Notes: a model not told the origin generated them from the letters alone. A stretch of 32,398 bases of DNA from Stramenopiles sp. TOSAG23-6 (GCA_900128565.1 LT635958.1:1-32398), one strand, 5' to 3'; counted from the first letter of the stretch, positions 1 through 24,500 are shown. Translations and numbers: made by a program.

Positions 1-53
1 GTACAAAATTTCGTACGAAAAAAAAATCAAATTTGAAAAAAAATAAAACATAC
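1..53 (-). other. Family intron #1, truncated by window edge
   Basis: Minus strand AT|GTATGTTTTATTTTTTTTCAAATTTG...TTTCGTACGAAATTTTGTAC, same architecture as the other copies; cut just before the expected CTAAC. Confidence 0.8.
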
Positions 54-1647: not shown

Positions 1648-2919
1648 ATGTCCAAAGAAAGCTCCAATGAAGTACTGCTTTCTAAAGTTATACCAAAGCC
1701 AACGTTTAGTGTACCAATTGATATTTTATGTATGGCTGCCATGGATAAAACTTGTGACTTCAAACCAATGAAGCTTCAACGGCGACCAATGAAAGAGTCG
1801 GACGTCGTTATCGATATGAAATTTTGTGGTGTTTGTCATTCCGACCTCCACAATGCTGCAAATGATATAACAATTCTAGGAGGTTGTAAATATCCAATTG
1901 TTCCAGGTCATGAACTGGCTGGTGTATGTATTGCAGTTGGTTCTAAAGTCACAAAATTTAAGGTTGGTGATCATGTAGGAGTAGGCTGTTTAGTAGATAG
2001 TTGTTTGAGTTGTAAAGCTTGCAACCGTGGAGAGGAACAAAAGTGCAAAAAATGTGTAAGTACATACCAAGGGCAAGATAATGGTAGTGGTCGGGCTCAA
2101 ACTTATCCTGAAAATGGAATGACACTTGGAGGATATAGTACTACTATGGTTGTTAATGAACACTTTGCGATTAAAATTCCCAAAGAATATCCTCTCGAAT
2201 TTGCAGGCCCAGTAATGTGTGCAGGGGTAACAATGTATGATCCATTACGCAGGCAAAATGCAGGGAGAGGAACACGTGTTGGTATTGTCGGTTTAGGTGG
2301 ACTTGGTCAGATGGGTGTCTCCATAGCAAAAGTGATGGGTTGTTTTGTTACTGTTATTTCTAGATCACAAGCAAAATCGACTTTTGCAGAGGAACTAGGA
2401 GCTCATAATTTTTTGCTTTCTACTTCATTGGAAGGTATGAAACGTTCCAGAAAGTCACTAGATATTATCTTGAATACAATACCGGTTGCTCATGATTATA
2501 ATATATATAAACAATTGCTTGCAACAGGTGGAAAACAAGTTTTACTAGGACTTCATCCAGCTTTAGCTGCTGCGATGATAGTTGACCAAATTACTTGTCA
2601 CCATTCAAAGGTAATTGCTTCAGGCATTGGTGGTATTGAATGTACTCAGGAAGTCATGAATTTATGCAATGATCATAAGATATACCCACAGATTGAGGTA
2701 TTTCCAGTGGAGGAGTTAAATAGAGTTTTCGAAGCTCTTGACGCAAGTAATGCTACTGGTACAAGATATGTAATGGACATTGCTGGAACTTTGAACAGTG
2801 ACGCATTTAGTCGTTGTAACGCACCTCCTCCAATCTTAGAGGAAAACCGTTCAACTTTTGGTATATGCAACAGCTGTTTTGCATGTTGTCAAATGTTTTG
2901 GTGCTGTAAGTGGTGTTAA
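1648..2919 (+). CDS. Zn-dependent medium-chain alcohol dehydrogenase (cinnamyl-alcohol dehydrogenase/YahK-like) with Cys-rich C-terminal tail
   Basis: CGVCHSD, GHE, structural Zn CLSCKAC-x7-C, PVMCAGVT, Rossmann GLGGLG. Confidence 0.93.
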   Translation: MSKESSNEVLLSKVIPKPTFSVPIDILCMAAMDKTCDFKPMKLQRRPMKESDVVIDMKFCGVCHSDLHNAANDITILGGCKYPIVPGHELAGVCIAVGSKVTKFKVGDHVGVGCLVDSCLSCKACNRGEEQKCKKCVSTYQGQDNGSGRAQTYPENGMTLGGYSTTMVVNEHFAIKIPKEYPLEFAGPVMCAGVTMYDPLRRQNAGRGTRVGIVGLGGLGQMGVSIAKVMGCFVTVISRSQAKSTFAEELGAHNFLLSTSLEGMKRSRKSLDIILNTIPVAHDYNIYKQLLATGGKQVLLGLHPALAAAMIVDQITCHHSKVIASGIGGIECTQEVMNLCNDHKIYPQIEVFPVEELNRVFEALDASNATGTRYVMDIAGTLNSDAFSRCNAPPPILEENRSTFGICNSCFACCQMFWCCKWC

Positions 2920-5398: not shown

Positions 5399-8035
5399 AT
5401 GAATAAGTCTTTTGCGATGAACTATATCACAGTTATATATGTTGTTTATGTAAATGTTTTAACAAAGTATGGAGTTTGTTCTGCTGAAGGAACACAGACA
5501 ATGTCATCTTCATTTGGTGCAGCACAACCAACAAAGATAACAAAAGGGATTGGACACAACCAATACAATACCCTCCCACCATCTCATGCACCGAACTTGT
5601 CAGGTTATTATCCGCAAACTCACCAATACACGAATTATCCAAATTATCAGAGTATGCCTCCTCCTACATATTACAACAGTGGAGGGCATCAACCACGAGC
5701 TCACCAGTATCATAAAGTACCTCAATATGGAAATAATGGACAACCCCCGCCGAGTAGTCTCCCAAATCATCATGCATATTCATATCCTCCGTATAATACT
5801 GGTCAAAGTTATATTCCTACTTCTTCTTATGAAAACCAAATATATTCAAATCAACAGCAAATGCACTCCTTTCAGAGCCCTGGTTCACCTCCTATGGGAT
5901 TTATCGACCCAGGAGATGCACCACCAGGTCCACAACGGGAAACGCGTCGTAATGAACGTCTTACAAGATGGTTAGAGCAAAATAGTATTCCTGGACATAA
6001 TCTTGAATTAACAACATTTTCTGGAGCCTTACCAAATACTCAGTACAGAGGTATGAAAACAAAAGTTGATGTTAAAGCTGGAGACGTATTGCTTCAAATA
6101 CCAAAAAGTGTTTTACTTTCTGAAGTTACAGCTAAATCATCTGGTCCAGAGGAAATCCAAATTCTATTTAAAGAACTTAGTAACTCTGGATCTGTGCCGG
6201 GTAAGGTACTATTAGCTTTGCACTTGCTTCGTGAATATTTTGACAGCCAATCTAAATGGGCCCCGTGGCTTCGAACTTTACCATCTCAAGCTGGAAATTT
6301 ATTATATTTTTCTGATGCTGAAATAACTGAAATGCAATGCCCTTCTGATGGATGTCCTGTTCTTGAAAAAGCACGCTCTGTTCGTATAGAATTATACAAA
6401 GTCTGGGAGACAATGAAACCTGTAATGGAGAAAGTGAATTTAATACCTAAAGGTCATTTTTCATACGAAAATTTTCAGTGGGCTTATTTGACAGTTACTA
6501 GTAGAGTATTTTCAATACGTGTTAATGATCGTTATGGTTATGGTTTAGTTGATGGAAATAAAGATAACTTTGGGACGTATTACATTGCTGCACCTTTTGC
6601 TGATATGGTAAATCACCATAATACTGAACCAGCAATACAATTTACATATGGATATAATGACAAAACGAATATGATTGAATTATTTGCTGATCAAGATTAT
6701 ACCGCTGGGCAAGAAGTATATATCTCATATGGTATTCTTACAAATCCTGATTTATTATTAAATTATGGATTTGTCTTGCGTGATAATTTATTTGAAAGTG
6801 TTGCATTGCGCATGGAAATTGATCACCAAACTCCTTTTTTTCATATGAAGAAAGCATTACTCATGTATGTTTTATTTTATTTTTTCAATTTCGAATTTAT
6901 TTTTCGTACGAGATTTTGTACCTAACGAATTTTAGTTTTTTTTTTTTGAAATATTTTTACAAAATACATTCATCACGAGTTGGTTTTCGATGAGTCAAAG
7001 AAAACATCAAATAATTCTACGATACAAAATACACAAAATACAAAAGAAAATGGTAATAAGGCTTCATATGAAGATCCAGTGATAAAAAAACGTCCAAATT
7101 CGATTGATTTTCTTACGACACAGATAAATTTAGTGGGTGATGCTTCTCAGCAGTTTATAACAGCATTACGTATTAAATCGTTTACACCAAAACCTGAAGA
7201 TATTGTAGCATTTAATTCTGTAAACAATACTATTGATGAAATATACCCAAGAAATACATCAAAATTGATGAATAATTCTACATTACCTATCTTCCCCATT
7301 TTGCCTGAGATATTTCCAGAAAACCCTTTGAGTGCAACAAATGAATTTGAAGTATATAATGGATTACTCATTAATCTTGAACAACTTCTTGGAGTATATC
7401 CAACAACATTACAACAAGATGTAGAAATATCACGAAAAGCATCTTCATATTTTACAAGTAATCCAAGATTAGCATCAGCACTTGTGATGCGAATTGAAGT
7501 AAAACGTATATTACATGCTGCATTGTTACAATGTTTCATTGGTATTAAAACTGCATTTGATTTAATATCGAAAGAACAACGACATCGTGCGTCTTCTTCG
7601 GTTGAACATGATATGTGGAAGCACTGGGATGATGGGATGAAAACATGGTTAATTCAGTGGGAAAATTGGCAACAGGATATTGATACTGTTTGGGGTAAAA
7701 ATGAATCAATGAGAACACATATGGATCGTACATTCAATTTTACTGATATTTTGGATAGTGCTGGCGATCAACGGATTGAAAATATGATACATGATGGAAT
7801 TGCGTTGGGTGCAACAGAGTCAAATGATAAGAATTTCAATAAAGTGAAGGAGATTCCTAAAAGTTATGGTAATGAGAATAATCAGGAATCAAAATCACAG
7901 CCTATGACAATTGGTCAATTATTAGCCAAATCTCAAGCTGTCATTGCTGCAGCAAATCAAAAGAAAGGAAGCAAAGTTGATGCTGAAATCGCAACTCAGA
8001 AGATGATGGAAAACATAATTCAAAGTCTGATTTGA
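5399..8035 (+). CDS. SET-domain methyltransferase (SETD3/Rubisco-LSMT-like); exons 5399-6864 and 6970-8035, start codon uncertain
   Basis: YRGM, SKWAPWLRTLP, FQWAYLTVTSRVF, PFADMVNH, EVYISYG, LLLNYGFV. The second ORF is in the same frame and has an LSMT substrate-binding-like YPTTLQQD segment. Confidence 0.85.
6865..6969 (+). other. Family intron #2 (105 nt, GT...CAT; equivalently AT...AC at 6863-6967)
   Basis: AT|GTATGT...TTTCGTACGAGATTTTGTACCTAAC...ATATTTTTACAAAATACAT|T. Contains the in-frame stop; removal gives KALL-I-HHELVF. Confidence 0.75.
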
Positions 8036-8121
8036 AAAGCAAACATAATACAAATAATAAAACATTTGATTTTATTACAATATTTTTAATTTTTAAACAC
8101 ATGCAAGATAGAGCAATATCA

Positions 8122-8994
8122 TTAACAAGGAATAGCAGTGTATACTTTTGATAAATCACGCATTGAACGACGAAGTTTTGTTGTCATCTTTGCCATAGTT
8201 TTTCGATCTAATAATAATGTATCAACCCAGAGTTTTTTTTCCGCCACTGTTCTTAATTTGTTTAATGCTATCCTATCTTCTTTAACAAAAGATCGTTCGA
8301 TTAAAGTCTCAAATGAATTCGCATCAAAAATGTCATCCAAAACATCATCAAGTGTATCAGGTTCATTGTCTGATTCCAATAACAAATCATCCAATAAGTC
8401 ATCCAACATGTCATCTTCACCCACGATATCTTTAGATTCAAGTAATGCATTAGAATCCAAAACACTATTAAGATAATTATCCGCCACTTCAGGTTCTATT
8501 ACCCTTGAATCAAATTTGGAAACTGGAATACGTTCTGTACATTGGGTTGAAGTTGCATGGTTTTTTATACCAGGCAATTGTAAATTCACAGAAGGCTTGC
8601 CCTGGTTGGAACGACGGCGGACACGTTCACGTGCTCGCTGGCGCGCACGCTCTCGGCGGTCATTTCTATTTAGTGAAAGTGTTTGCTTTCTCGGTTTCCG
8701 TGCTCGTAGCTCAGCACTGTGTTTAATTTCTTTATCATAACTTGATAGCTCACGTGGCGATATTGCAAGCATAGGTTTACTAATATCGACTGAACGTTTT
8801 TGACGGTTTCTGTTGCGAGCTCGAAGCTTTGCTAATTCTCGACGGGATACTTTAGTAGCCGGTATAACTTCTATGTGATTATGTTTCTCCAAAATTGAAT
8901 CTTTTACGGAAACATCTTTAACTTGGGAACCACTTTCTGTGGTTTCTTCTTCCTCCGCGGAAAAAAAATCCTCATCGTCAATTATTGAAACCAT
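8122..8994 (-). CDS. Hypothetical protein, 290 aa, with basic then acidic blocks
   Basis: Long ATG-initiated ORF with coding-like composition; no family recognised. Confidence 0.7.
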   Translation of the reverse strand: MVSIIDDEDFFSAEEEETTESGSQVKDVSVKDSILEKHNHIEVIPATKVSRRELAKLRARNRNRQKRSVDISKPMLAISPRELSSYDKEIKHSAELRARKPRKQTLSLNRNDRRERARQRARERVRRRSNQGKPSVNLQLPGIKNHATSTQCTERIPVSKFDSRVIEPEVADNYLNSVLDSNALLESKDIVGEDDMLDDLLDDLLLESDNEPDTLDDVLDDIFDANSFETLIERSFVKEDRIALNKLRTVAEKKLWVDTLLLDRKTMAKMTTKLRRSMRDLSKVYTAIPC

Positions 8995-9503
8995 CTACAA
9001 ACGTCTACCACAAAAACTGCTTTATGCCAACGATTATGAAAATCCACAAGAACTGACTATCGAAAAGTAAGTGTAAAAATGAAGACTAGCTGGTGGCTAA
9101 CACTTCAGTATATATTAAAGGCGAGTAGCGTCGCTGTGCAGCTTAATATATTTCGAAATACGCAAAAGTCATCAGGAAGGAAGTGACCACCTTGAAGACT
9201 CAAGTCAAGTCAAATCTCTTCGATACCCGGTACCGATAAATAATAAAAGAATTTTGTAATTGTCATAATTAAATAATTAAATGTAGTCTAATATTATAAT
9301 ATATGATAATATCACATTGGAATTCCTGGAGGCGACCGAAAGCATCACCGTGTTATCATCCGCATTTGATTCTTGTAGGTAAATTTGGACATTTGAAATT
9401 CAAAAATAAAAGAAAACAAGATTAATACTTTTAAAAAATATACATAATTTAATATTAATAATGTAAATTCCAATATTATCTTTCTAATTTACTTGTATAA
9501 TGC

Positions 9504-11447
9504 TTATTTGGTAACCATTAATGTAGCAACAACAGCAGTGACATCATCATTATTCTTATACACAGCGTGTGCGCTATCTACTATAAGACGTGCAGCAATC
9601 TCAGCTTTTTCAGCGTGTAATATTCTACCGCTGTGTTGATATTGCTGTTCGCCGTTCTCAAATGTAGCGTGATTATTAGAAGTATCATCACATTGCCCAC
9701 AATGTAAATTAGCCATACTAGCCTCAGTTATATCTGAAGCTTCTTGTAATAATGCTGCGCATTTCAAAGGAGATATTACATCCCATAAGCCATCTGTTGC
9801 TAAAACAATAAACAATAGCATGTTGTTACTACTAGAATTTGAACTAACTATTTGATTGATTGAATGAACTGTAACTTCAGGTGTTGCACACACTCCAAAT
9901 CGTTTAAGGTCCTGATCACCAATTGCACGTGATAATGATATATCTCGATTTATTCGATATAATGCTTTTTTACCGTGAGCTTGAGCGATCGCTACTAGTC
10001 GTGCAACTTCCTCTGCGTTTTCTACAGTTACATTTTGCCCATGCACCTCAACAAATCCTTCTTCTGTTGAACAAACTCTTTTCAATTCTTCCATTTGCGA
10101 AGGCTTGTGGGCACGAGATAATAATGTCCAGCTTCCAGGTGGAAGAAGTTGGCAAGAATTTTTTGGTGATACCCAAGCTTGAAATTCTTCAATTTTTGAA
10201 CTTGCATCTAATAACTCTGATAAGTTATAACATTGTAAATTTGTTGAACCCGAACATTTTACACGTCTTACGGGTAATGAACCAGATCCAGGCCCAAAAT
10301 GTATTTCTTTATCAACTATATCATGATTGACAAAATTCTCTGTTGTTTTTTCTGTGTCATTTCTATTTAAAACATCTTTTTTACTTGTTTCTACACCTAA
10401 GGCATGATACATAAGAGCGCCACTATCCCCAACATTTGCACAGTATATTTTACCTCTTTCTTCATCTATTAAAACGGCACATAAAGCAGCGCCAGGATAT
10501 AACTCTTTTTTGTATAATTTCCAAAAATCCTGTTGAACGTTTACATAGTGACTCAATTCACTTTCACACGAAATCCCACTTCGTTTCCCATGTTCTTTAG
10601 CTGCTCTTCCTAAGGCATTACGATACACTGACTCAAGTGGATAAGTATTCCATTCATAAATATTGAATTTTGGGCCAACTTCTTGCACAAAAGTAACATA
10701 AAACTTCTTCCCATTATCTCGCACCAAAGAAACCCAACGTCTTTTACAAAATTCCTCGTCGACACTGCAAATGGCTTTACTGAGAGCTTCTTTTATTGCT
10801 TTTTCTTCAATAATGGCTGCAATCGTATTCGCTTTATCGGATGAATTCATATTAATTGGTTTAAGAGTATCTTCTTTACGGAGCTGTTCTATAATAAATT
10901 CACCTAGGGCTTCAGTACAAAAGCGTGCCGCATGGTTTGATCTGTGACCATCAAAAACACCAAATAGATGAAACACGCGATTATTCACATTCAACTTTAC
11001 ACTGGAAGATGATTTCATTCCCTTACCTTTTGCAGAGTTAGTACTATTGTTTTTTTGGTATGTACTGTGTGGAGCACTTTCTTCCGGTTGGTGAGACAAA
11101 ATATCTAATACAGCTGAAAATGCATCTTCCGATGCTCCTCCACGGGTGGAACGCTTTCTACCGTCAACCGCGGCAACACCAAACCCAGATAAAAATAAAG
11201 GAACCTTACGCCGTCTACAGGAACGACCCAATGTTCCCCAAGCTCCACAAGATCTTCCATGAACACCTGGAAGAGGACCTGCAGTTGTGGCTGACATAAC
11301 GGGAGTTGGGTCTCGGCGGCCGTCCATGAATTCGTCGGGTAAACAAGATCCATGGTATAGTCGTTCGTCCGCGGGTGTACGTTTACTTCGGTGTTTAAAG
11401 AACTTTTTCATCTGCTTTTTTGCACGCTTCTTTTCCTCATGAAACAT
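9504..11447 (-). CDS. PP2C/PPM-family protein phosphatase
   Basis: SEDA, FGVFDGH, ANVGDS, HKP, SRAIGD, LATDGLWD, NDDVT. First ATG at 11447. Confidence 0.92.
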   Translation of the reverse strand: MFHEEKKRAKKQMKKFFKHRSKRTPADERLYHGSCLPDEFMDGRRDPTPVMSATTAGPLPGVHGRSCGAWGTLGRSCRRRKVPLFLSGFGVAAVDGRKRSTRGGASEDAFSAVLDILSHQPEESAPHSTYQKNNSTNSAKGKGMKSSSSVKLNVNNRVFHLFGVFDGHRSNHAARFCTEALGEFIIEQLRKEDTLKPINMNSSDKANTIAAIIEEKAIKEALSKAICSVDEEFCKRRWVSLVRDNGKKFYVTFVQEVGPKFNIYEWNTYPLESVYRNALGRAAKEHGKRSGISCESELSHYVNVQQDFWKLYKKELYPGAALCAVLIDEERGKIYCANVGDSGALMYHALGVETSKKDVLNRNDTEKTTENFVNHDIVDKEIHFGPGSGSLPVRRVKCSGSTNLQCYNLSELLDASSKIEEFQAWVSPKNSCQLLPPGSWTLLSRAHKPSQMEELKRVCSTEEGFVEVHGQNVTVENAEEVARLVAIAQAHGKKALYRINRDISLSRAIGDQDLKRFGVCATPEVTVHSINQIVSSNSSSNNMLLFIVLATDGLWDVISPLKCAALLQEASDITEASMANLHCGQCDDTSNNHATFENGEQQYQHSGRILHAEKAEIAARLIVDSAHAVYKNNDDVTAVVATLMVTK

Positions 11448-11888
11448 GCTCAAGCAAAAGAATTTAAAAAATTGTAAACACGTTCAAATTTGCATTAGTT
11501 ACAAGTCTTTTTTAATTTTCCCCAGAGAAAAAATTTATAGGAAGCAAATTCTACGTTCCTGCCTGCATTTTTCGTTTGAATTTTGCGGAATTTTCGAATT
11601 TTCGTTTCGAAAAAAAAATCAAATCACATCTCCGAAATCGGCAAGCGCATTACGCATTACCAAGCAGGTTTACGACAGCAACACTTGTACTTTCATTTGT
11701 CATTCATTTATGTGAAAAGCAAATTCCACATTAATTATCAAGTGAAACTCATAAATATTGTGTATTCATTTCATCTGCAAAAAAATATTGTTTGGTCAGG
11801 ATTTCAAACTTAATTTATTGTATGATTTAACAAAAATAAAGTCTTTTTTGTTTTAATCAAAAATTAAATATACAATATAATGACAGTT

Positions 11889-12750
11889 TCAATCCATACG
11901 ACCTTTTAATTCGCGTGTTATAACTTGTGTAGGAGTAATAATATGAACATATGCACCCCAACCACTGAGAGCGTCACGGTCAACAGCTGCGAGTAAAGAT
12001 TGTGATAAAGTTTCGAATAGTTCATCCTCATTCATATCCTTTCTAAAAAGACTTTCACAGGTACCATATAGATTATCTGCACATGTACCTGCAACAACAA
12101 AATCGTCAGTAACAACGGGTGCGCCAATTAAATCCATAGCACAAAGATAAGGTACATTGTTTTCATCGAGACCGGCAACCACTGGCTCAATGAACCAAGG
12201 ACCAAATCTCTTCTCATATAGCATATTAGAAAGCAAATGTGAGAACGTTTTTGGTTTCATTGAACGATCTTCACGCAATTCATACCTATACTGAAATAAT
12301 ATAACAAAATGCAATTATGTATGAGTCTTTATATTGTAGGGAGAGTTTATGAAGTGTACACTGGAGTTGGGGAAAGAAAACACGAAAGTAAATCCTATTG
12401 ACAACATGTTATACAAAGAAACTTATAGGCTCGGAATACTTTTTAAAGCCAACACTGGATATGAAACATAATAACACACAATTAATATACTTAAATCAAA
12501 TATATAGGGAAAAGCTTATACATACAACTTACATTTTCATACGAAAGTCAAGTTTTTCACTCATTGTCTGTACATCAGTAGCGAGACCACTGAGACCCAC
12601 TACAAGTTTGTCGTTCATTTCAAAAACACGATTGAAATTACAGCTCACTGTCTGAGCACTAGCTCCCAAGCGTCTATCAGTTGCAATACCAACACAATTC
12701 TTGCCAGCCATGGCAATCACGGCACTGCCATTGTATTCGAGAATAGACAT
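11889..12750 (-). CDS. PSMB3: Proteasome subunit beta type-3; exons 12750-12533 and 12285-11889 (204 aa)
   Basis: MSILEYNGSAVIAMAGKNCVGIA...GLSGLATDVQT; YEKRFGPWFIEPVVAGL; DRDALSGWG; C-terminal LKGRMD. Confidence 0.97.
12286..12532 (-). other. Canonical GT-AG intron (247 nt), no family motif
   Basis: AT|GTAAGT...TATAG|G restores FRMKMYELRE. Confidence 0.93.
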
Positions 12751-13036
12751 CTTCGTATATTCTACAGTGTTCTCTATTTAGTTGTCTCTTTCTCATCGCG
12801 ATCAATCGCAAAAAAAAACACGACATTATTTTCGACAAACCTGCTCGGCCATCGAAAAAACTATTTTTTTCTGTCGTCTTCCAATTTCAACATCGAAGAT
12901 TTTGATTTTCGAAATTACTATACGGAAGGTACTTTCGCCTTTAGGACATTTTCTCCTTTCCTTTCTCAATGTGGGTATGGAAATAAATAATACGAAACTT
13001 ATTCTTCGCAGAGCTAACAAAACCCGTACTTCAAAT

Positions 13037-14228
13037 ATGTCGCACGTCAATGTTGATTTCTATGAATATTATTCTAAATATGATGGTCACCCTGTGTCAG
13101 GTCTCAAAACAATTCATGATTCTCTTAGGGCAGATGGTAAAAATATAATATTTTTAGCTGGGGATTCTTCTTTGGATAACAAGTTTTGGTTTTCGAACAC
13201 CGGTCCTGCAATAAATGGATACGAAAAAGTTTTGCATCCGGCGAAGATGAAATTAGATGTTTGTCGGGCCTTCAATAGAGAGTGTGTCAAACTTTCAGAC
13301 AGAAATGAAGACTGTCAGTACGCTTGTTTGAATACAGCTATTGAGGCAAGCACTTTGAACAATCGTTCGTGTGGCAAGTTACTAGACCAAGATAAGTTTA
13401 TACGAGAGTCTATCACAAACAATGATATACTCGTTGTATCCGTAGGGTTTTTTGAATTTCGTTTCAGAAATATTTCAATAAAGCATCACCTTATAAAGTT
13501 TATATTGACTCATTCGTTAGTACTGTTGACATAAACACATTTATCACAGTGGCAATGACGTTGCCTTACAGCCATTATTGTGTACTGTAATAAATATGCT
13601 AGGATTAGTCTGGTGCAGTGGACCTCAATGTTTAATGGAGCGAATGTCGTGTGCTTGTCCAATAAATACAGGCTCCATATGTGACTTTGGTTGTTTATGT
13701 TGCGGTCTTCCTAATTGTTTAATTAATGGTCTCTTAGGCTTTCCACTTGGTACTGGTTATATGGTCGATTTATTTGCCAACCGTGTTGAAAATTATGTAC
13801 GAAAACTTATTGGTGACAAAAGGCCAAAAACAATTGTTGTATGTATGATATACTTTCTAGACCAAGAATCGACAGGGTCCTGGTCAGATTGTGCTTTAAC
13901 TTGTCTTTTATACAACAAAATTCCACGTCGATTACAACTCTGTATTCAAAAGGCGTTTGAATTAGGTACAATGCGTATTAAAATAAAAGGTACAAAAGTA
14001 GTACCTTTTCCATTATTTGATGTATTAGACGGAAGTGATACTACAGATTATGTTCAACGTGTTGAGCCGAGTCCTAAAGGCGGAGAAAAAATCGCTTCAG
14101 CTATTATGGAAAAACTTTTTACAACCGATGGTGAGCTTAGTAATAGTAATAGTGTGGAAAATGATACTAATTTATCGAGTGAAATTGGTGAAAACATAGT
14201 TGCTAAAAGCAATAACATGGCGAGATAA
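13037..14228 (+). CDS. SGNH/GDSL-like hypothetical protein; exons 13037-13446 and 13550-14228
   Basis: FLAGDSSLDNK (block I-like); the spliced junction restores VVSVGGND (block III-like); DYVQRVEPS in the block V position. Confidence 0.75.
13447..13549 (+). other. Canonical GT-AG intron (103 nt) with weak GTTTTT donor
   Basis: GG|GTTTTTTG...ATCACAG|T GGC AAT GAC joins the two ORFs in frame. Confidence 0.85.
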
Positions 14229-14363
14229 TATGTTATGTTCTTTCTCAAAGTAAAATTCTTATGAAATGTTTATTTTCAAACTGAAATTGATAGTTCATTT
14301 TAGTGGGTGCATATACAAATGTTATTATGAAATAGACTTTTCTCTTGTAACCAAGAAATCATT

Positions 14364-16256
14364 TTAATTTTGAGAACCTGGCACATTATCTCTATCTTGC
14401 TCATCATTTACTGCTTCATTAGCTGCAAACAATGCAGCATTCAAAGCATTATTAAGTACAGCATCATCATCACATTTTGATATCGTCGATTTTGCGTCAC
14501 AATTTAAAACAGCATTTAAATAATTATTAATTATAGCATCATCATTACATTTTGATATCGTCGATTTTGCGTCACAATTTGAAACAGCATTTAAATCATT
14601 ATTAATTATAGCATCATCATTACATTTTGATATTGTCGATTTTGCGTCACAATTTGAAACAGCATTTAAATCATTATTAATTATAGCACCATCATTACAT
14701 TTTGATATTGTCGATTTTGCGTTACAATTTGAAACAGCATTTAGAGCAGCTTGCAATCCACTTAATATAGCATCATCATTTTTCTTCTTTTCCTTCTTTA
14801 TGTTATTCATACGAATAAAATTTGATAACTTTTGTTTCATCATCTGATCGGACGAATGCTTAATGACGCTTTTTGTTTTTAATACATCTTCATTTTGAAC
14901 TTCAGTGTTTGCAACATACCAATCTCTGACACGTGTCATATCCACAATACCTTGTGCATTGCTGAGATTTTCCAAATTGTACTCCTTTGAAATTCTGTCT
15001 TTTGCCTGTTTTGAACACTTTCGAGAGCTACGACGTGTTCCTTCTTTCGGTATTTTCGGTATTTTCGATAATTTTGATTTTTTCGGTATTTTTGATTTTG
15101 CTGTCCTTGTTTTACCTTTTACACTTGATTTTTTTCCTTTAGAAAAACTTTCAGAATTATTTAATTCCTGTGTATCAAATATTTGTTTCTCTGAAAAATA
15201 TCGTATTTTATCTTTCTCAGCTAATTCAACTGCGAAGGCTTTCTCAGCATTTGTTGAATTTTTCCATAAATTCGCTAAATCTCGTGTCAACTCAGAGAAT
15301 TTTTTTTGGGGATTAGATTTTTTTAATTCTTTACGATGATGATTACTAAAGTAAATATATGCTGTAATTGCACGTTTTGGTCCTTTTTTTTTTGATTTTC
15401 TCAATTTTGTTGTTTTCTTCAATTTTTTTTTCTTTGATTTTACTCTCACAACCTTTGGTTTTGTTGTTCCTTTGCGCTTCTTCATATTTACCTTCGGCAT
15501 TAAAGTCACTCTCTTTTGTTTCTTCCTGACTGCTTTTTTTATTAATGTACCAAGAACAGTTTCTGAATGGTTTTGTGTTACAATTTGTTTTTTTTGTTTT
15601 TTTTGTTTCTTTGTGATAGGAAAATTTCCACTTGTTAAAAGCTTTCGCTTTGGAAAACTTTTCATTGATTTAGTAGGCACTGGCGTACTTTGAGACGGCA
15701 CAGTTGTTGTATTAGAAGTATTCATTGTAACAATAGGTGTTGACGTACTTTGAGACGGTACAGTTGTTGTATTAGAAGTCTTCACTGTAATTGTAGTCGA
15801 TGTAATATCCCGAGATTTCTGATTTTTAAGAGAAAAATGTAAACTATCAGAATTTGAGACCATTGTGCTACTACATCCCATAACATTTACTTTCGAGGCT
15901 GGAGTTGTGCCAATTGCTGGTGGTAGAAATATTGCAGAAGACTTCATTGTTTTAGTCGTTGACGGTGCTGGTATTTTCTTCGTTGCAATCGCAGTCATTC
16001 TTACAGGAATACAAGGTAAACTCATTTTTTTTGGTAAAATTGAGAGGTTCTTTACGTGTACCAGTGATTCTTTNTTGTTTTTTGTTTCTTGTATACAAAC
16101 ATTTTTGGATTGTTGCAGGGTCTGTCGTTTCTTGCGGGTGTGACGACACGGGTTGATTCTACATTTACACGTCTTTGTGGTTGAAATTGGATTCGGTAAT
16201 ACGAGACTTTCAGGAAGTTTCTTTTGTTCAGAATGTGTTTTTGATACTTGAATCAT
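14364..16256 (-). CDS. Lys-rich HMG-box protein with C-terminal tandem repeats; start uncertain
   Basis: GPKRAITAYIYFSNHHRKELKKSNP...FSELTRDLANLWK...AEKDKIRY is an HMG box. First in-frame ATG at 16256. Confidence 0.82.
   Translation of the reverse strand: MIQVSKTHSEQKKLPESLVLPNPISTTKTCKCRINPCRHTRKKRQTLQQSKNVCIQETKNXKESLVHVKNLSILPKKMSLPCIPVRMTAIATKKIPAPSTTKTMKSSAIFLPPAIGTTPASKVNVMGCSSTMVSNSDSLHFSLKNQKSRDITSTTITVKTSNTTTVPSQSTSTPIVTMNTSNTTTVPSQSTPVPTKSMKSFPKRKLLTSGNFPITKKQKKQKKQIVTQNHSETVLGTLIKKAVRKKQKRVTLMPKVNMKKRKGTTKPKVVRVKSKKKKLKKTTKLRKSKKKGPKRAITAYIYFSNHHRKELKKSNPQKKFSELTRDLANLWKNSTNAEKAFAVELAEKDKIRYFSEKQIFDTQELNNSESFSKGKKSSVKGKTRTAKSKIPKKSKLSKIPKIPKEGTRRSSRKCSKQAKDRISKEYNLENLSNAQGIVDMTRVRDWYVANTEVQNEDVLKTKSVIKHSSDQMMKQKLSNFIRMNNIKKEKKKNDDAILSGLQAALNAVSNCNAKSTISKCNDGAIINNDLNAVSNCDAKSTISKCNDDAIINNDLNAVSNCDAKSTISKCNDDAIINNYLNAVLNCDAKSTISKCDDDAVLNNALNAALFAANEAVNDEQDRDNVPGSQN
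14442..14741 (-). repeat. 4 x 75-nt coding tandem repeat (NAVSNCDAKSTISKCNDDAIINNDL)
   Basis: Near-identical units at 75-nt spacing. Confidence 0.93.
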
Positions 16257-16464
16257 AGCTACTTCAATCAACTGGTGTGACGTGGTGCCAGATATCTTAG
16301 ACTCTATTAATTTTTTGCAGTCTGCGAATTGAACTAATTGAACTATGTAAAAAAAAAAGAACAAATCACACCAATTTTTTTTTGACACGGATGACAGCAA
16401 AACCTGTCAATCAAAAAAAGTGATGCAGGCAGACAGTATTGTTCCATTTTTTTTGTTCTCTTCA

Positions 16465-17328
16465 CTACTTCTTTTTTTTCTTTTTTTTTTGCCATGGTAA
16501 CATCTGTGCTACTCCATATGGATTCTCGTAGTAACCTACAGGCTTTTGACCATGCCTATACAATGCTGGGTTTATACCTGGAACGGGGTCAACAGTTGTC
16601 GTTTCCCACGTATTGTGAAAAATATTTGAAATTTAAAATTCGTTAGGTACAAACTTTCATACCAAAAAACAAAAATTAAATTTGAAAATGATGAAAATGA
16701 AAACGAACATTCATCCGTCTCAATTGGTTGAGCATTTGACCGACCTCCTATTACCCAAGGAATTGAATGCACTGGAATATCTTCTCCATTTGGTTCATAA
16801 AACGGATGATGCATTGACATATCCTGCCCAGTATCCCACGGATTCCGATTTTTAAGTGAATTATGTTGTAACATCAAATCAACTCTATTTGATCCATCGT
16901 AAAGAGCAGCTCCACCAACCATTTTCTGAGGAAATCTTTGATAAAACGGCTTGAATGATTCGACAGCTTTTGCAACTTGTTCTGGAGTTTCATCTAATCG
17001 TTGCACTGTCATGAACTTGTTTTTTGAATCTCCGTCATTTTTTGCATCTCCCAAGGGAAGAGGTATTCCTGCGGGGACTTCTGGCCATTCTAAACCCTCC
17101 ATTGAACCCCGTTTTACGCGGGTATCACTAATTCCCTTGTACCTGATATGTGTAAAAGCGTATGATTGAATATTCCAACAATAAATGAATGGATAAAAAA
17201 ATAAAAGAAGTCGTTTTCAGAAAAGTAAACTGGTAAACATACATCCAGCTTCTTGTATCAAATGGAGTTTCGCCAAGTATAAATAAAGTGTTGTTCAGAG
17301 CGAATAGCAAGAAAATATATAAGTTCAT
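16465..17328 (-). CDS. Three-exon hypothetical protein with signal-peptide-like N-terminus and poly-Lys C-terminus; exons 17328-17243, 17142-16709, 16607-16465
   Basis: Joined reading MNLYIFLLFAL...SWM|YKGISDTR...MEGLEWP...IETDE|WETTTVDPVPGINPALY...WQKKKKKKK*. Confidence 0.65.
16608..16708 (-). other. Family intron #3 (101 nt; GT...CGT, or AT...AC at 16710-16610)
   Basis: AT|GTTCGTTTTC...TTTGTACCTAAC...ATATTTTTCACAATACGT|GG; end is 35 nt from the branch A. An in-frame CAG about 30 nt further on is an alternative acceptor. Confidence 0.65.
17143..17242 (-). other. Canonical GT-AG intron (100 nt), no family motif
   Basis: AT|GTATGT...ATATCAG|G; phase 2 on both sides. Confidence 0.8.
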
Positions 17329-17608
17329 TCTAGTGTTTGATTCATTCCATTCAATTCAAAAAATCATTCTCAACAATGACATTGTCAATAATTATGTTTT
17401 TTTTTCCCCTCTCGCTCTCTCTCTCTCCCCCTCCGATTAATTTAGTTGTCTTCCTCACAAACCTGCTTCGCGCCAAAAAATGTCTCCAAAGCGAAAGGTA
17501 ACAATATTGGCGCAATGGCCAATTCGCGCCATCCTCCTCCTGTGTGCGTCATTTATCTATACTTAAAGCTTTGTAAGATTCAAAACAAATCAAGCTACAT
17601 TTTATACA

Positions 17609-17881
17609 ATGGTACTCACAATGAATACTTCTTTAAAAGCAAATACGTTGAATGCTCCAGACTGTAAACAAAACTGTTTTCCAACAAAATTTTCAGCCAC
17701 ACAGACACATAGAAAAACGCAGGATGAAAACTCTAACCCGAACGTAAATGCCACATTCAATAGAAAAGAAAAACCAGTTCACGCATCTATCATTCGATTG
17801 ATTAGGGAAGAGCGACGTTTAGTTCGTGATGCAGGATATTCTCAATCGCAAAGGAAACGTGTCCTTCGGGTTCTGCAGTAG
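17609..17881 (+). CDS. Small hypothetical protein (90 aa)
   Basis: ATG-initiated ORF in an otherwise empty interval; helical, basic C-terminus. Confidence 0.4.
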   Translation: MVLTMNTSLKANTLNAPDCKQNCFPTKFSATQTHRKTQDENSNPNVNATFNRKEKPVHASIIRLIREERRLVRDAGYSQSQRKRVLRVLQ

Positions 17882-18148
17882 TGATTATGAGAAAGAAAAA
17901 AAAAAGAACTACTGCTCCATGAGTACTTTTTTTGTAGCGCAACAATTATAGTACTAGTATATCAAAAGTCGAACCATACTTTATTAGTGTACGGAATCAA
18001 AAAATAAATATTTATATAAATATGATTTTGTTATAATTCTTTATAATAGAGCAAAAAATCTTTATGCTGCTACCTCAACACACAAAAAAAANGACGNCAA
18101 AAANGTTTTNAANATTCAAAACAACTCATTTCAAGTATAGCTTTTACA

Positions 18149-21100
18149 CTAGATGAGTTTTCCACCTGCAAACATTGGTGACACTAATTCCAGCAAATCG
18201 CCACAAGGTAGACCACGATTGAGTCTACTTTTAGCTATTTTACACCAAATACGCCCTTTTGTTGGGTTAGCTTCTTCACATTTCGTTTTTACAGTAAGTG
18301 CCAATGCTTCGGCAGCTGCTTTTGTATCCTCACTTACAGCATCTTCTACTTGTTCTCTTTCGAACTGATAATATTGGGCCCAAGAGTCACCACAATTTTT
18401 ATCCAACAAAACTGCACGATTTAACCACTTTCGCGCTTTTCTAACTTTAGCGGGTTTGTATTTCCAGAATAATCGAGCAACAGCCAAAACAACTTCGACA
18501 TTCGACGAACCGCAACTCCGAAGAGCGTCTGCACTTCTTGATTTCTGTTGTTGCTTTGGTGTCATATCGATTTCAGTCGCCCAGAGTATACCAGATTTTG
18601 GACACTTTTGCAAAGCACGTGACATTAGCTTCTCTGCTAATTTTTTTTGCACGTTACTGACACTAGTATTCATAGATTGTATTGGTGTTTTAGTTATATT
18701 TGATCCATTTGGTTTGCCTTGTAATTCTAAGCGAATAGCAGCTAACCAAATAGCAGGCGATTGTGGTAACTTTAGCCTCGCAACTTCTAAAAGAGATCGA
18801 GTTTTCGTTAATGAACTAACACTTTTCTCTAATGAAGTGGCTAATAACCATAATTCAACAGATTTTGGAAATTTTGCTAAACCTTTGTGATATGTCTCTT
18901 TAGCACGACGAATCCATTTTAGATTTTTTTCATTTGACATTTGTTTCTGTCCACAAGAAAGTGAATGTTTTTCTTCATACAATTGACCCAACATCATCCA
19001 CAACTTCGCCTCTTCATCCGGAAATTTACCAAGTGCTGCTAAAAGTAACTTTTCTTCTGCATCGAGACAGGATTGTGACCATTCCAAAAGAGCTGACTTC
19101 ATCCATACTCTTGGAGTTGAATTTATTCTATTTCTTGCTTGTGAAAGTAAAGATCTTGCAGCTTCTACAGATCCTGAACTCTGTTTTAATTTTGCTGATG
19201 CGAGTAGGAGAGCCTCAGAATCGATGTGTTTCATTGCATTTTCTAATAAAATTTCTGCTGCTTCAATATCATCAAATTCTTCCCATGTATGTTTTGCTGC
19301 CATTAACCAGAATGTTTCGCATTTAGGTACACTTGATAATGCTTTCTGATATAAATTTTTCAAAGTGTATTTTGTACCATATCTTTTTTCAAATTCAACT
19401 AAATTAAACCATAGTTTCTCTTTTGAATGGTACACAGAGACGACCTTATCGTAAATAGCACGAGCGACTGCAATATTACCAGCTTTCTCTGCAGCAGTCG
19501 CTTCATCACACCATGTACGATATCTAGTGCCATCAATTATTCCAATTTCAAGACATTCTTTAGCAATTGCTGTAGCCGTATATGGAGCACCAGCTCTTTC
19601 AGCTGCAGATGCTTCTTTAAGCCATTGCTCTCTGCTTAAACTAACATCATTTGCTTCCAGTGATTTTCTAGCAAGTGAAATTATTCTTTCACATATACTT
19701 TTGATTGATGCTTCAGAGTTTTCATCGTCATTTTTTGAGTTCGCTTCCTCTAATCGTGATGCTGCAATCCAAATACGAACATCGGTAGGTACTGATAAAC
19801 GTGCTTTATTTAATACCCTCTTTGCATTATCATATGATTCTAAACGAGCTAATGCTAACCATAAATCCACAGCAGAAGGAACACATTCAACAGCACGACC
19901 AAGCATAACACGAGCATCTTCAGGCTCTTCAAGAGCCACAGCAGCCTTCCAAAGACGCACAGAATGAGGTAAAAATTCCAGAGACTTTCTCAAAACTCTT
20001 CGCTTTGCTGATGGCTTTGATTCTAATTCAGATGCACGCTCCCAAATTCGTACAGATAAAGGAAGTGAACGTACCGCATTCGCTAAAATAATTTTAGCAT
20101 TTGCATTATTCTCCATCGCAGCAGATTCTAACCACACATCTTCAGACTCTGGACACGAGACACATCCGCTTCGTATGACATTCCGTGCAGCAACCATTTT
20201 ACCTGCTGCTAATTCAAGTCTAGCATATGCAATCCATCCAGCAGGTTCTTTAGGATTAGTCTTTGTAACAGACTGTAATAAAAGTCTACCTTTTTTAATA
20301 TCAGCCATTTCACTCATTGAATTCACTTTTTGTGAATTTAAATCAGTGAGATAACCTTTTGGATCGACGACTGTCTGACCAGAGACAGAGTCAGACATCT
20401 TCTGTAATTTTCTACTCAATAATTGTTCACGAGCCTGTGCTAATTGACCACCCACCTGTAACACAGAATTACCACCACTTTGCGTCATTGGTGTTTTAAA
20501 ACCTCCAATAGGAGTCTGAAAACCTCCATATTTTTGCTGCCTTGGATCAATAAATGTTTGTTTGTTATCTGATGGTATACCCATAGTTAGAATATTGTCG
20601 GGGACAGGATATGAGACAGGTGTTATCTTTGCTTGCTTCCTCTTTAAAGAACGATCGCCAATTTCTGGAATGGCTTCCCATTCTTCGTTGCTAATCTGTT
20701 TTAAATCTTTTTTGAGATCAGCAAATTGATCTTCAATTCGTGGACGCTCTATACGGCGTTTCTTTTGTATTTCGTTTTCACGTGCTTCATTGCGAACTTT
20801 ACGTCGTTTCTCCATATGTTGGTCAACAGCCTTGTATATAGCATCTGCTTCTTTATCTTCAGTTTCGTATGGAGAATCACTAAATAAACTATGACTAAAA
20901 CCCGACTCTTTATCAAAATTTGACTCTGAAAAATCTTTCTCTCGTTCTCCATTTTCTAATTTATCCTTTCCAAAGTTACCTACTGTACCAGAACCACGAC
21001 CAGCACCTCCACGATACCCATCAGGAGCTTGACCAAAATCTGTTCGGCCTACTGCAGCAGATCCACCAACACCAAGACCCCCAAGTCCTTTCTCCCTTTC

Positions 21101-21361
21101 TTTCTTCGCAAAGGCCATCTTTGCTTGCTTTTCTGCAATCAAATCTGAGATTTCCGCACATTCGCGTTTAAACTTTTCAGTACCAAAAGAAGCGTTTAAA
21201 AATTCAGTACCCTCGTGTACATTATATCCTGCAGGACCTATATCAGCGCTTGTAGTAAACCCAAGAGCACCACGTCCAAGACCAGGAACATATCTTTTTG
21301 GCTTCAACGCTTCCTTCGCAAATGTTTTGGGGTTTCGACTAAATGCGGCACTCCCATTCAT
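18149..21361 (-). CDS. PRPF6: Pre-mRNA processing factor 6 (U5/tri-snRNP HAT-repeat protein), intronless
   Basis: YVPGLGRGALGFTTSADIGPA, FADLKKDL, WEAIPEIGD, DSVSGQTVVDPKGYLTDL, DIKKGRLLLQSVTKTNP, HAT repeats. ATG at 21361. Confidence 0.97.
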   Translation of the reverse strand: MNGSAAFSRNPKTFAKEALKPKRYVPGLGRGALGFTTSADIGPAGYNVHEGTEFLNASFGTEKFKRECAEISDLIAEKQAKMAFAKKEREKGLGGLGVGGSAAVGRTDFGQAPDGYRGGAGRGSGTVGNFGKDKLENGEREKDFSESNFDKESGFSHSLFSDSPYETEDKEADAIYKAVDQHMEKRRKVRNEARENEIQKKRRIERPRIEDQFADLKKDLKQISNEEWEAIPEIGDRSLKRKQAKITPVSYPVPDNILTMGIPSDNKQTFIDPRQQKYGGFQTPIGGFKTPMTQSGGNSVLQVGGQLAQAREQLLSRKLQKMSDSVSGQTVVDPKGYLTDLNSQKVNSMSEMADIKKGRLLLQSVTKTNPKEPAGWIAYARLELAAGKMVAARNVIRSGCVSCPESEDVWLESAAMENNANAKIILANAVRSLPLSVRIWERASELESKPSAKRRVLRKSLEFLPHSVRLWKAAVALEEPEDARVMLGRAVECVPSAVDLWLALARLESYDNAKRVLNKARLSVPTDVRIWIAASRLEEANSKNDDENSEASIKSICERIISLARKSLEANDVSLSREQWLKEASAAERAGAPYTATAIAKECLEIGIIDGTRYRTWCDEATAAEKAGNIAVARAIYDKVVSVYHSKEKLWFNLVEFEKRYGTKYTLKNLYQKALSSVPKCETFWLMAAKHTWEEFDDIEAAEILLENAMKHIDSEALLLASAKLKQSSGSVEAARSLLSQARNRINSTPRVWMKSALLEWSQSCLDAEEKLLLAALGKFPDEEAKLWMMLGQLYEEKHSLSCGQKQMSNEKNLKWIRRAKETYHKGLAKFPKSVELWLLATSLEKSVSSLTKTRSLLEVARLKLPQSPAIWLAAIRLELQGKPNGSNITKTPIQSMNTSVSNVQKKLAEKLMSRALQKCPKSGILWATEIDMTPKQQQKSRSADALRSCGSSNVEVVLAVARLFWKYKPAKVRKARKWLNRAVLLDKNCGDSWAQYYQFEREQVEDAVSEDTKAAAEALALTVKTKCEEANPTKGRIWCKIAKSRLNRGLPCGDLLELVSPMFAGGKLI

Positions 21362-21589
21362 ACTGCCTATATTTGTATAAAGTATAGAAAAAAAAAGACT
21401 CAAAACCTGGCTCAAAAGAAGACCTCGTTTATATACGGCTTTAGGTAGATGTATAGAGTGCGTCTCTCTCTGTTCGCGTTGCGTGTCACTTTTGAACGTC
21501 AATTTCGAATTTGTTATTAGCCCTAACCCTAGCTACTAGAAAGTGATGTGTAAATACTAAAAAATCTTAATATCAAAAATCTTTATTAT

Positions 21590-24500
21590 TCAACAAGGAG
21601 AACATTTCCTTAATTTTAAATCTACAATACAAACTCTCCTAAATCCAGCATGACAAAGAATTTGAAGCAGTAACATCGCATCCTCTACGCATGTTGAAAC
21701 GACACATATCAATGAACTTTGTAATTCTAAAATACTCATATGGTTAGATTTAGAATTTGAAGACGTTTTACTTTGCATTGTTTTAGGGTTAGGGTTAGTC
21801 GTAATACAGTATTCAGAATTTACAAATTGACTAATTACTCCAAGGCAAGCATTAGAACATCTTTGTTGGTCATCTACATTTAAATTTCTAGCATTTGCTG
21901 ATAACCAAGGTAAACATTCCTTTTCTACTTCTTGTATTGATGAATGAGTGATGAAAAATATTTTAAATTTTAAATCGATTAGGTATGGAATTACTTTCTT
22001 TGTAAAATATTTAAGTAAAAAATTAATTTTGAAACGTACATACAAACTACGAATACATATATGAATAGTTCGAGTTGAAACTGGTGTAATATAACTACAA
22101 AATTCAGTGTGCATGGATTATGAAAAATATTTCAAAAATTAAAATCGTTAGGTACGAAATTTCGTACGAAACAAAAATAAATTCGAAATTGAAATTGAAA
22201 TTGAAATTGAAATTGAAAACGTACATTCTATGTAACGAATTGAAATCTGTAATAAATTCATTACTTGAGTTTTTTTTCATAAATGATTTCCTACAAAATT
22301 TAGTACAAAATTCATCATACTCTTTGAAATTATTAGTCTCATCATTTTGTATATCATTTTGTATATCATTTTGTATATTTTGAGGAATTTTGAAGAATTC
22401 GCTACAATTTATCAAAATACATGATTCTTTCCATAATAAGTCTTCATGTAAAACATTCATAGGAATAAATGGAACATGTACAGTGAAAAAATATTTTAAA
22501 AAATAATTTTTGTTAGGTACAAAATTTCGTACGAAAATAAAAACAAAATTTGAAAAAAAATGAAAACGTACATTCAATGAAGGGAAGCAAATTTCATTTA
22601 CCCATGACTTCCAAATACGAAAATTTTGTATATCGAAAATAGTTTCATTGAAAATTTCATTACTTTTACTGTGTCGTTCTTGTAAATATGATACAATTTT
22701 GGTAACACGCATTGAAAATAAAGCACGTGGAGTATTAGATAACATTCTTAATGATAGTGTTAAACTTCTTTGCACATTTAGACGAGTTACAAAATCATTG
22801 AATAGATCATCACTTTGATGTGAAATTGATACAGAATGTGTTTGAAAACTTGACATTTCTATATTTGTATGATCCTTTTTTTTTGAAACATATTGATCAT
22901 CTACAATCTCAATATTTTCTACTTCATCTATATCATCGTTAAATCTTACAGTATTTATGACTTTATCAGGCAAATCATTACAACTATTACTAGTAGTAAG
23001 ATTGTCTGTACAGTTTTCATAGTCAACACATCCTTGATTAAGTTTTGAAATAAAAGTCATAACACCACTGAAATCAAGTTTCATGATTTGTTCTTTCTTT
23101 TCAATAAGAAGGGAGACACCAAGAAAAAGTACATGTATTGTGAAAAAAACACGAAATTATGAAAAAAAATTGTTAGGTACGAAATTTGGTACAAAACATA
23201 CGTAAATTAATAAATTCATGATGAAAAAAGTACATGATCAGGTTCGGTGGCAAGTAACATATCCCAAACTAAAACTAATTCTCGAACCCAAAACACATCT
23301 GAGACTGTCTTGTAGAAAAATATATATATTTTTTACATATTAGGTACGCGACGAAATTTGATATTAGGGTTAGGGTTTTAAAAAAAAATTAACCACTACT
23401 CATTTGAACAACAATACATTTGAAATTGATGATTTCAAAAACGTACATAAAGTCACAACCCAAGAAATTGCATATAATTCTGGTACAATTTCTAATTTCT
23501 GAAGGTAATTTGATAATTCTGGATCCCAGAAATGTAATATAGTAGCAAATAAGTCTAATCGTTTTATAAGAAAATTTGCTCCGTGTTCTCCTGGAAGACA
23601 ATAATCTGGTATATATTGTTCTAATAGTGATGAGAGGCATATAGAAGCAAAATGAATCCTTATGTTTTTGTGATGTATATTTTGTTTCAAATCATCGAAA
23701 GCAAAGTTTTCTTTTTTCTTCATCAAAACTTTTTCAGGATTACTTTTTAATTCTTCATTGCCTTCTACAGTATAATCATCGCTCATAAATACATGTAAAA
23801 ATAATGCTGCAATCGAATCAAATCCTTGATGATATTCTAAATTTGGATATCTTTTTGACCATTTTAATAATACATTGTGTATAGCATCAACAGATTCATT
23901 TGAAGTTAAACCATAAATTAATCCAGATTGTGCAAATCTATTTCTTTCAGAATCTACTTGAAGTAGTCCTAGGTCTGAACAATGAGAAACTTCATTTTTT
24001 TCAGTTATTAATTCATCATTGATTTGGTTGTTTCTATTTGTAGCATCACTAATATTATCATTCAAACGAAGCAGTGCAACCCAGATTTTGTAGCGATATT
24101 GTTGAGAAACTCGAAATACTTCCAAACGTCCAAACTCTTGTCGTTTCTCTACTCTAGGCTGAACTCTCAATAATTTAAGAAATTCGTCAATATACTTGAG
24201 GTCAATTTCCGAATACGCAACACCTGTGACGGCGTCATGTTTCTTTGACAAAACTATTCCTTTCGATACACAAAATCTCATGAGAACTTCATCAACGAGT
24301 ACATCAATATAATCACGATGATTCAATTTATTCTGGCGAGAATTGAGAATTTCTAAAGGATAAGGGGAACCTTGTATTCCACCGGATTCAACAGAACCAA
24401 CTTTTGAACCCATTGTGATACGACGAAATGCAACTTGTGAACTTGACTGGGAAGCAACAGCATCTCTAGACGGTGTTGAGGATTGAATTACAACTCGTGA

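Follow-up and report, generated by a model that had tools for sequence, protein, structure and literature searches.

The 32,398-nucleotide stretch of DNA from Stramenopiles sp. TOSAG23-6 analyzed here (GCA_900128565.1, LT635958.1:1-32398; called the window in what follows) contains a set of short look-alike introns which we regard, with a probability of roughly 0.65, as spliceosomal introns derived from one short mobile intron sequence, that is, an introner-like family of about 95-112 nucleotides (nt) with GT...AT borders (GT...GT in one copy). Comparison of the sequences confirms that these introns are copies of one sequence family residing in unrelated genes; the family is real and introner-like, and its precise removal needs a non-canonical acceptor, most likely AT. 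The window holds six family introns, a truncated seventh at its edge and two diverged relatives, distributed over four genes, and the family accounts for 6-8 of its 11-12 introns. A further copy, in a different gene (ACAT / GTATG...ATACAT / GG), lies on the metagenome contig MDTB01012742.1 (L001), the sole contig matched when public metagenome contigs were scanned with a 24-nt degenerate core motif; the same motif had no match in viral or prokaryote collections. A second motif scan, which returned three bacterial and two viral contigs, was discarded, all of these being 22-nt chance matches. The copies and relatives in the window are the following, a slash marking the exon-intron junction:

1-53, minus strand: truncated family copy in a coiled-coil gene (2-1336, minus), cut by the window edge; exon ...AGTAATAT / GTATGTTTTATTTTTTTTCAAATTTGA...CGTACGAAATTTTGTAC
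6865-6969, plus strand: copy in the SET/LSMT-like gene (the SET copy), 105 nt; CTCAT / GTATGT...AAAATACAT / TCATCA
16608-16708, minus strand: copy in an unnamed secreted-protein gene (the 16708 copy), 101 nt; GAAT / GTTCGT...CACAATACGT / GGGAAA, with the 3′ end GT, not AT
21944-22039, minus strand: intron E of the TBC gene, diverged relative, 96 nt; GTACGT...ATACCTAAT...ATATTTTTCATCACTCAT
22113-22224, minus strand: TBC intron D, family copy, 112 nt; AGAAT / GTACGT...CATAATCCAT / GCACAC
22476-22571, minus strand: TBC intron C, family copy, 96 nt; TTGAAT / GTACGT...CACTGTACAT / GTTCCA
23133-23233, minus strand: TBC intron B, family copy, 101 nt; 12-nt direct repeat over both junctions
23305-23446, minus strand: TBC intron A, GT...AG relative, 142 nt; AT / GTACGT donor, TACCTAAT and ATATTTTTC in register, CAG at the end

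Three of these copies had been singled out by a first-pass annotation of the window, and all three were found where it had put them: the SET copy (its number 2; 6863-6969, plus strand, ATGTAT...ATACAT), intron C (its number 6; 22573-22476, minus strand, ATGTAC...GTACAT, with ATGT repeated) and intron B (its number 7; 23236-23124, minus strand), in which the 12-nt sequence CATGTACTTTTT occurs at 23236-23225 and again at 23135-23124, over both junctions. All three intron phases are represented, as the same annotation had noted, phases 0, 1 and 2 occurring in 3, 2 and 3 copies, respectively, when the introns are read from GT and L001 is counted.

The copies share a fixed order of elements: exon AT, GTAYGTTTTCA, a T-rich spacer, a 16-nt palindrome GTACGAAATTTCGTAC, the branch-site-like motif TACCTAAC, a spacer, the T run ATATTTTTCA, six bases and AT. 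The palindrome, which overlaps TACCTAAC, can form a hairpin of 6 base pairs in most copies, and its variants preserve pairing via G-U. The branch-like A is located 35-44 nt from the 3′ end, with the T run downstream of it, and the terminal CAT is conserved. AT precedes GT in 8/8 copies (the seven complete ones and the truncated one), and the 3′ AT is found in 6/7 complete copies, the 16708 copy having GT instead. We infer spliceosomal removal, with cleavage before the G of the donor and after CAT: the major-type donor AT / GTAYGT would define the 5′ end, the branch would form at the A of UACCUAAC within the branch-site-like motif, and past the T run ATATTTTTCA the intron would be removed through the T of the conserved CAT.

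In order to judge whether the copies are related over their length, a leave-one-out search was carried out with nhmmer, in which a profile built from the other copies was searched in the window and L001. Six of the seven complete copies were recovered with E values of 1e-7 to 4.5e-16 (SET copy 1.1e-10; 16708 copy 2.5e-11; C 3e-9; D 4.5e-16; L001 9.1e-13; B 1e-7, over its 3′ two thirds only). The truncated copy at 1-53, which was included in no model, was still matched by the profiles at E 1e-4 to 1.6e-2. The family copies can be aligned over their whole length, and their global pairwise identity is 64-82% vs. 64 ± 3% in shuffled T-rich controls; identities this close to the control level indicate that the copies are old. 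Two subfamilies can be distinguished by the sequence that follows the branch motif on the way to the 3′ end: B and L001 carry ATRATTTCGTGTYTTTTTCAC there, the SET copy, D, C and the 16708 copy TTTGAAATATTTTTCA. Such variants outside the signals fit descent from copies and are not expected from convergence on the signals. The first-pass annotation had made its proposal depend on a likeness reaching beyond the short splice signals, and this is what the profile matches and the alignment display.

Much of what the copies share nevertheless coincides with donor, branch site or T run, and intron-poor eukaryotes are described as converging on strict 3′ intron structures (PMC2483917; papers are cited here on the strength of those portions of their text that were available). 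The introns could thus be of an ordinary, old kind, unconnected with any mobile family, in an intron-poor species whose splice signals are long and strict, a reading that we consider very unlikely in view of the whole-length alignment, of the subfamily variants and of three ordinary GT-AG introns of the window that serve for comparison:

12286-12532, minus strand: intron of the proteasome beta gene; ordinary GT-AG, without family likeness
13447-13549, plus strand: intron of the SGNH-like gene; ordinary GT-AG; TAGG / GTTTTT...ATCACAG
17143-17242, minus strand: intron 1 of the secreted-protein gene; ordinary GT-AG; GGAT / GTATGT...ATATCAG

None of these three gave a profile match or contains a CTAAC-type motif, and the stretches shared by the family are therefore not the general splice signals of the species. 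The SGNH-like intron opens with GTTTTTTGAATTTCG and holds GAAATATTT, faint echoes of the family that yield no profile match; it may be a very old relative.

Evidence on the exact extent of the introns comes from the reading frames. Removal of the sequence from the G of GTAYGT through the conserved CAT (CGT in the 16708 copy) yields single open reading frames (ORFs) for the TBC protein (838 amino acids, aa), the SET protein (843 aa) and the secreted protein (220 aa), and an early stop results whenever a 3′ end in the TBC gene is displaced by 1 or 2 nt. The TBC junctions were further compared with 47 homologues recovered by a representatives search with TBC exon 1, all of them distant (at most 52% identity, reached by a 79-aa fragment, and at most 41% among the longer ones); this exon 1 search found no close relative or transcript, and a search with TBC exon 3 found no match. 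Summed over the 47 homologues, exact excision of copy B scores 2886 bits, compared with 2376 bits when the first downstream AG is used, and no gap interrupts the alignment over the junction ...ATEPDH / VLFLGVSLL.... Moreover, the cut in copy B has to fall within its 12-nt repeat, which contains no AG / GT, so that no GT-AG pair is possible there. For the SET copy, exact excision gives a gapless alignment with the EukProt orthologue P0050 (64% identical) at ...KKALL / IHHELV... and a score of 694 bits, whereas the sole GT-AG alternative introduces a two-residue gap and scores 688 bits. At the protein level, P0050 is continuous over the site.

A canonical GT-AG solution for all copies was tried on the ground that, in all six window copies checked, GT at 0 or +4 and the first AG downstream keep the frame, a coincidence with a chance of about 9% (about 1 in 11); it was rejected as it fails the comparison with homologues at B and at the SET site. 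Several observations weigh against the reading that we prefer, namely a mobile GT...AT family. The support at the SET site amounts to 6 bits, and at four sites without homologue cover (the 16708 copy and TBC introns C, D and E) a GT-AG alternative (GT at +4 or the first downstream AG) keeps the frame too. P0001, a near-identical database protein, runs into the 16708 intron and thus must be genomic or unspliced. Membership of TBC intron E is doubtful, its leave-one-out score being only E 0.95, and nine copies were seen in all. The predicted folding is weak as well (z -0.03 to -2.8), with the central 6-base-pair hairpin as the sole recurring element, and the idea of a strong conserved RNA fold was given up.

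A separate observation concerns TBC exon 1, in which a 120-nt in-frame stretch without stop codons (23673-23792, minus strand) is flanked like the family, AT / GTATTT...ATACAT /. It has no family likeness and its make-up is purine-rich and coding-like. Without it, the summed score against the 47 TBC homologues is 3373 instead of 2886 bits. The stretch is a loop specific to the lineage or else a further GT...AT intron.

The borders call for an argument of their own, since with AT on both sides GT...AT and AT...AC borders give the same messenger RNA (mRNA). The same family could be read as AT...AC introns, the upstream AT opening the intron and the terminal AC of the element closing it, in the manner of U2-type AT-AC introns. 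The mRNA would be identical in 6/7 copies, among which frames cannot discriminate, and the end of the 16708 copy, ...ATAC / GT, fits AC. An A at +1 together with a C at -1 is said to form a compatible pair, reportedly a finding of Parker and Siliciano from 1993. Introns of the U2-type AT-AC class do exist (PMC1557818). This reading would, however, turn D into an AT...CC and E into an AT...TC intron and place the perfect GTAYGT 2 nt out of register, and the combination of an A at +1 in the donor register with a C at -1 was not found in the family.

What decides most clearly against AT...AC borders, which we hold to be improbable, is TBC intron A. Although the family profile does not match this intron at E<1, its ATGTACGT start and context are those of the family, and it also contains TACCTAAT and ATATTTTTC, but ends in CAG. 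Read as GT...AG it yields the F of a W..TLF motif, whereas the AT...AC reading gives V and costs 127 bits; the motif is present in 38 of the 47 homologues examined, with F in 34, Y in 4 and V in none. The conserved F thus places cleavage before G in such a donor context. In the 16708 copy as in introns A, D and E, TACCTAA and the 3′ junction are separated by exactly 42 nt and ATATTTTTC is in register, and the CAG of intron A occupies the position of CAT in D and E and of CGT in the 16708 copy; it lines up with the family CAT, not with AC. Given this shared 42-nt register, the family CAT corresponds in position to a normal CAG acceptor, which is why the family is read as GT...AT. The 3′ AT thus most likely serves as the acceptor, judging from the frames, the homologues and the register with intron A, which agrees with the earlier proposal that the duplicated AT has this role.

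A U12-type identity was likewise compared with the sequences. Introns of this type have a donor [AG]TATCCTT and a branch site TTCCTTAAC located 10-26 nt from the 3′ end. The family agrees with this type in neither respect: its donor is GTAYGTTTT, and 35-44 nt separate its TACCTAAC, which has a T run after it, from the 3′ end.

As regards the spread of the copies, the upstream exon AT and the terminal intron AT together resemble a 2-nt duplication, and three routes are candidates: a DNA transposon that duplicates AT, reverse splicing of the intron into AT / G sites, and microhomology-based capture at breaks. The first of these had been put forward in the first-pass annotation, as an aged introner family that duplicates AT and has inverted ends; in its full form, a non-autonomous DNA transposon duplicating a 2-nt AT target and using the downstream AT as acceptor, it is possible but in our opinion rather unlikely. 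The family and its age hold up, the duplication by a DNA transposon is unproven. AT is indeed found on both sides in 6/7 complete copies, but this AT is identical everywhere, and a match across the intron that is the same at every site is ambiguous between a duplication and a preferred site (Gozashti et al. 2022, PMC9860276), so that target-site duplication cannot be separated here from site preference. Moreover, AT / GT is also found in two of the three non-family introns, and AT may therefore belong to the donor context of the organism. Intron A has AT before GT as well, which hints that the exon side of the donor is unusual in the consensus of this organism. The introns ending in AG that show AT, not AG, before GT have their donors at 12532, 17242 and 23446 (minus strand).

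The inverted ends ATGTA(Y)/(R)TACAT are present as claimed; as transposon inverted repeats they are not convincing, being 5-6 nt in length, frequent by chance, and in their GT a part of the donor. The pattern ATGTA-N88-112-YACAT has 18 matches in the window vs. 6.3 ± 3.1 in shuffles, several of them in plain coding sequence. Beyond ATGTA(Y), the 5′ end no longer matches the reverse complement of the 3′ end, and no terminal inverted repeat of at least about 6-10 nt was found. The repeats at the junctions measure 2, 3, 3, 4, 5 and 12 nt, and wherever they extend further, by 1-10 nt, the added bases are those of the 5′ or 3′ end of the element itself. Insertion at sites resembling the element ends, or microhomology, is thereby suggested no less than a staggered cut of fixed length. 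The reach of the direct repeats (3, 3, 4, 5 and 12 nt) can be counted in favor of the DNA transposon, but a fixed 2-nt duplication leaves the 12-nt repeat of B unexplained. Also in its favor, G follows the downstream AT in 5/7 copies and C precedes the upstream AT in 3/8, a hint of a palindromic CATG target. Introners taking one splice site from a duplication are known, as set out in the available part of PMC9860276. On the other hand, no transposase family was matched among the 19 ORFs included in a Pfam scan, in agreement with the earlier statement that the window contains no transposase. All eight window copies are genic and in sense orientation, which speaks against a DNA transposon with little power, 27.4 of the 32.4 kilobases (kb) being genic. 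For the same reason gene bias was dropped as an argument for RNA-mediated spread.

A different kind of removal, excision at the DNA level as in the internal eliminated sequences of ciliates, would leave one AT in the somatic DNA. The TA-bounded eliminated sequences of ciliates are short, with a dinucleotide repeated at the ends of which one copy stays, and in this they resemble the copies described here. The ends of the latter are AT, not TA, and a strong donor, a branch-site-like motif and a T run, in fixed order and in sense orientation, are spliceosomal signals; the genetic code is the standard one, with long ORFs. A 97%-identical strain moreover carries the element, as the 16708 copy, on a contig of independent origin (P0001, the only match in a search with the secreted-protein exon), and the metagenome contig has it too. 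We therefore give DNA-level excision hardly any credence and retain splicing of a mobile GT...AT family as the preferred reading.

Comparison with known systems places the window family closest to introners, the family consisting of introns at unrelated sites with a whole-length likeness beyond splice signals. Introners of Micromonas, Aureococcus, dinoflagellates, fungi and others are look-alike short introns at unrelated coding sites, with exact restoration of the frame, a short repeat over the junctions and use of all phases (Gozashti et al. 2022, PMC9860276, and 2025, PMC12130899), and the borrowing of a splice site from the duplication with restoration of the frame is well described in the accessible portions of both papers. 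The families described in PMC9860276, as far as its available text goes, have GT/GC/GA...AG borders, unlike the window family with its 3′ end AT. In 12 of the 13 spreadsheets that accompany PMC12130899, files that may contain no sequences, the family motifs do not occur. GT-AT introns are known from animals (U2-type DGCR2; U12-type, seven cases; Sheth et al. 2006, PMC1557818) and share with the window family the termini, a good donor and a pyrimidine tract; this listing of rare GT-AT introns of both the U2 and the U12 type means that the chemistry is not unheard of. The animal cases are isolated singles according to the part of that paper at hand, whereas GT...AT is the rule for the whole family in the window. 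The non-canonical introner elements of Amoebophrya (Farhat et al. 2021, PMC7789003), likewise from a marine protist, are repeated non-GT-AG introns with direct repeats of 3-5 nt over the borders; as described in the available text, they differ in that inverted repeats of 8-20 nt allow their ends to pair, and their terminal dinucleotides are not shared from one element to the next. The window family has a direct repeat of 2-12 nt, inverted ends of 5-6 nt with weak end pairing, a normal GTAYGT donor, an odd end AT (once GT), 36% GC and genes on both strands. Non-canonical introns of the tunicate Fritillaria were reportedly described by Henriet in 2019. In Fritillaria a large share of the introns escapes GT-AG and is thought to come from inserted elements; in the text available of PMC13326754 the odd ends are mostly AG...A(N) with a donor that is not GT, whereas in the window family the last base of the acceptor alone departs from the rule. 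No description of an introner family with GT-AT or AT-AC borders turned up in a literature search.

Bursts of intron gain are at present best explained by introners, and the described families are reported with AG at the 3′ end. A GT...AT family would, if true, mean that in a free-living protist an entire class of introns can follow a looser 3′ splice-site rule, and it would provide a compact natural substrate (about 100 nt, with a fixed spacing from branch to acceptor) for studies of second-step selection; it is a natural test case both for the spread of introns and for the strictness of splicing rules. More tentatively, the major spliceosome of this uncultured marine protist could routinely join after AU for a mobile family supplying most introns, this AU being the copied insertion target, in which case a single 2-nt duplication would both mark the transposition and make a functional acceptor that breaks the AG rule; we find this combined reading doubtful. 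In practice, gene callers restricted to GT-AG break or mis-join such genes, and the TBC, SET and secreted-protein genes are split into separate ORFs in the window.

The window as a whole is gene-dense eukaryotic nuclear DNA of 32.4 kb with a GC content of about 36% (25-43% per kb) and genes on both strands. It contains 77 ORFs of at least 80 aa, of which 19 long ones were covered by the Pfam scan; the names obtained are ADH, Band 7, SET with the Rubisco-LSMT substrate-binding domain, PP2C, proteasome beta, HMG box, PRP6, RabGAP-TBC, GDSL lipase and MSP. Scans for Rfam families and transfer RNA genes found nothing, and PDB searches gave nothing useful. Five seawater metatranscriptome runs contain 5-10% of the sampled words of the window, and a marine protist origin is our working assumption. 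Single Ns interrupt sequence that is otherwise normal at 16074 and 18092-18113, as they would in a co-assembly or a consensus.

Repeated sequences other than the introns were also noted. The 3′ part of the HMG-box gene contains, at about 14480-14730, approximately four tandem copies of a unit of about 63 nt, in frame on the minus strand, and in L001 three tandem copies of a unit of about 57 nt containing AAGAATATTAAAAAATGTTTATTACCTTGAAG lie between the two genes of the contig (about 1340-1510, minus-strand numbering). Telomere-like (CCCTAA)2/(TTAGGG)2 motifs are found on the minus strand at 21520-21535, 23360-23378 and 21785-21800, and in L001 at about 1760-1815 (minus strand), in settings that are intergenic, within TBC intron A and within TBC coding sequence. 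Finally, TTAGGGTTAGGGCT is present after a gene end in the window and again in L001, and may be a shared regulatory or terminator motif.

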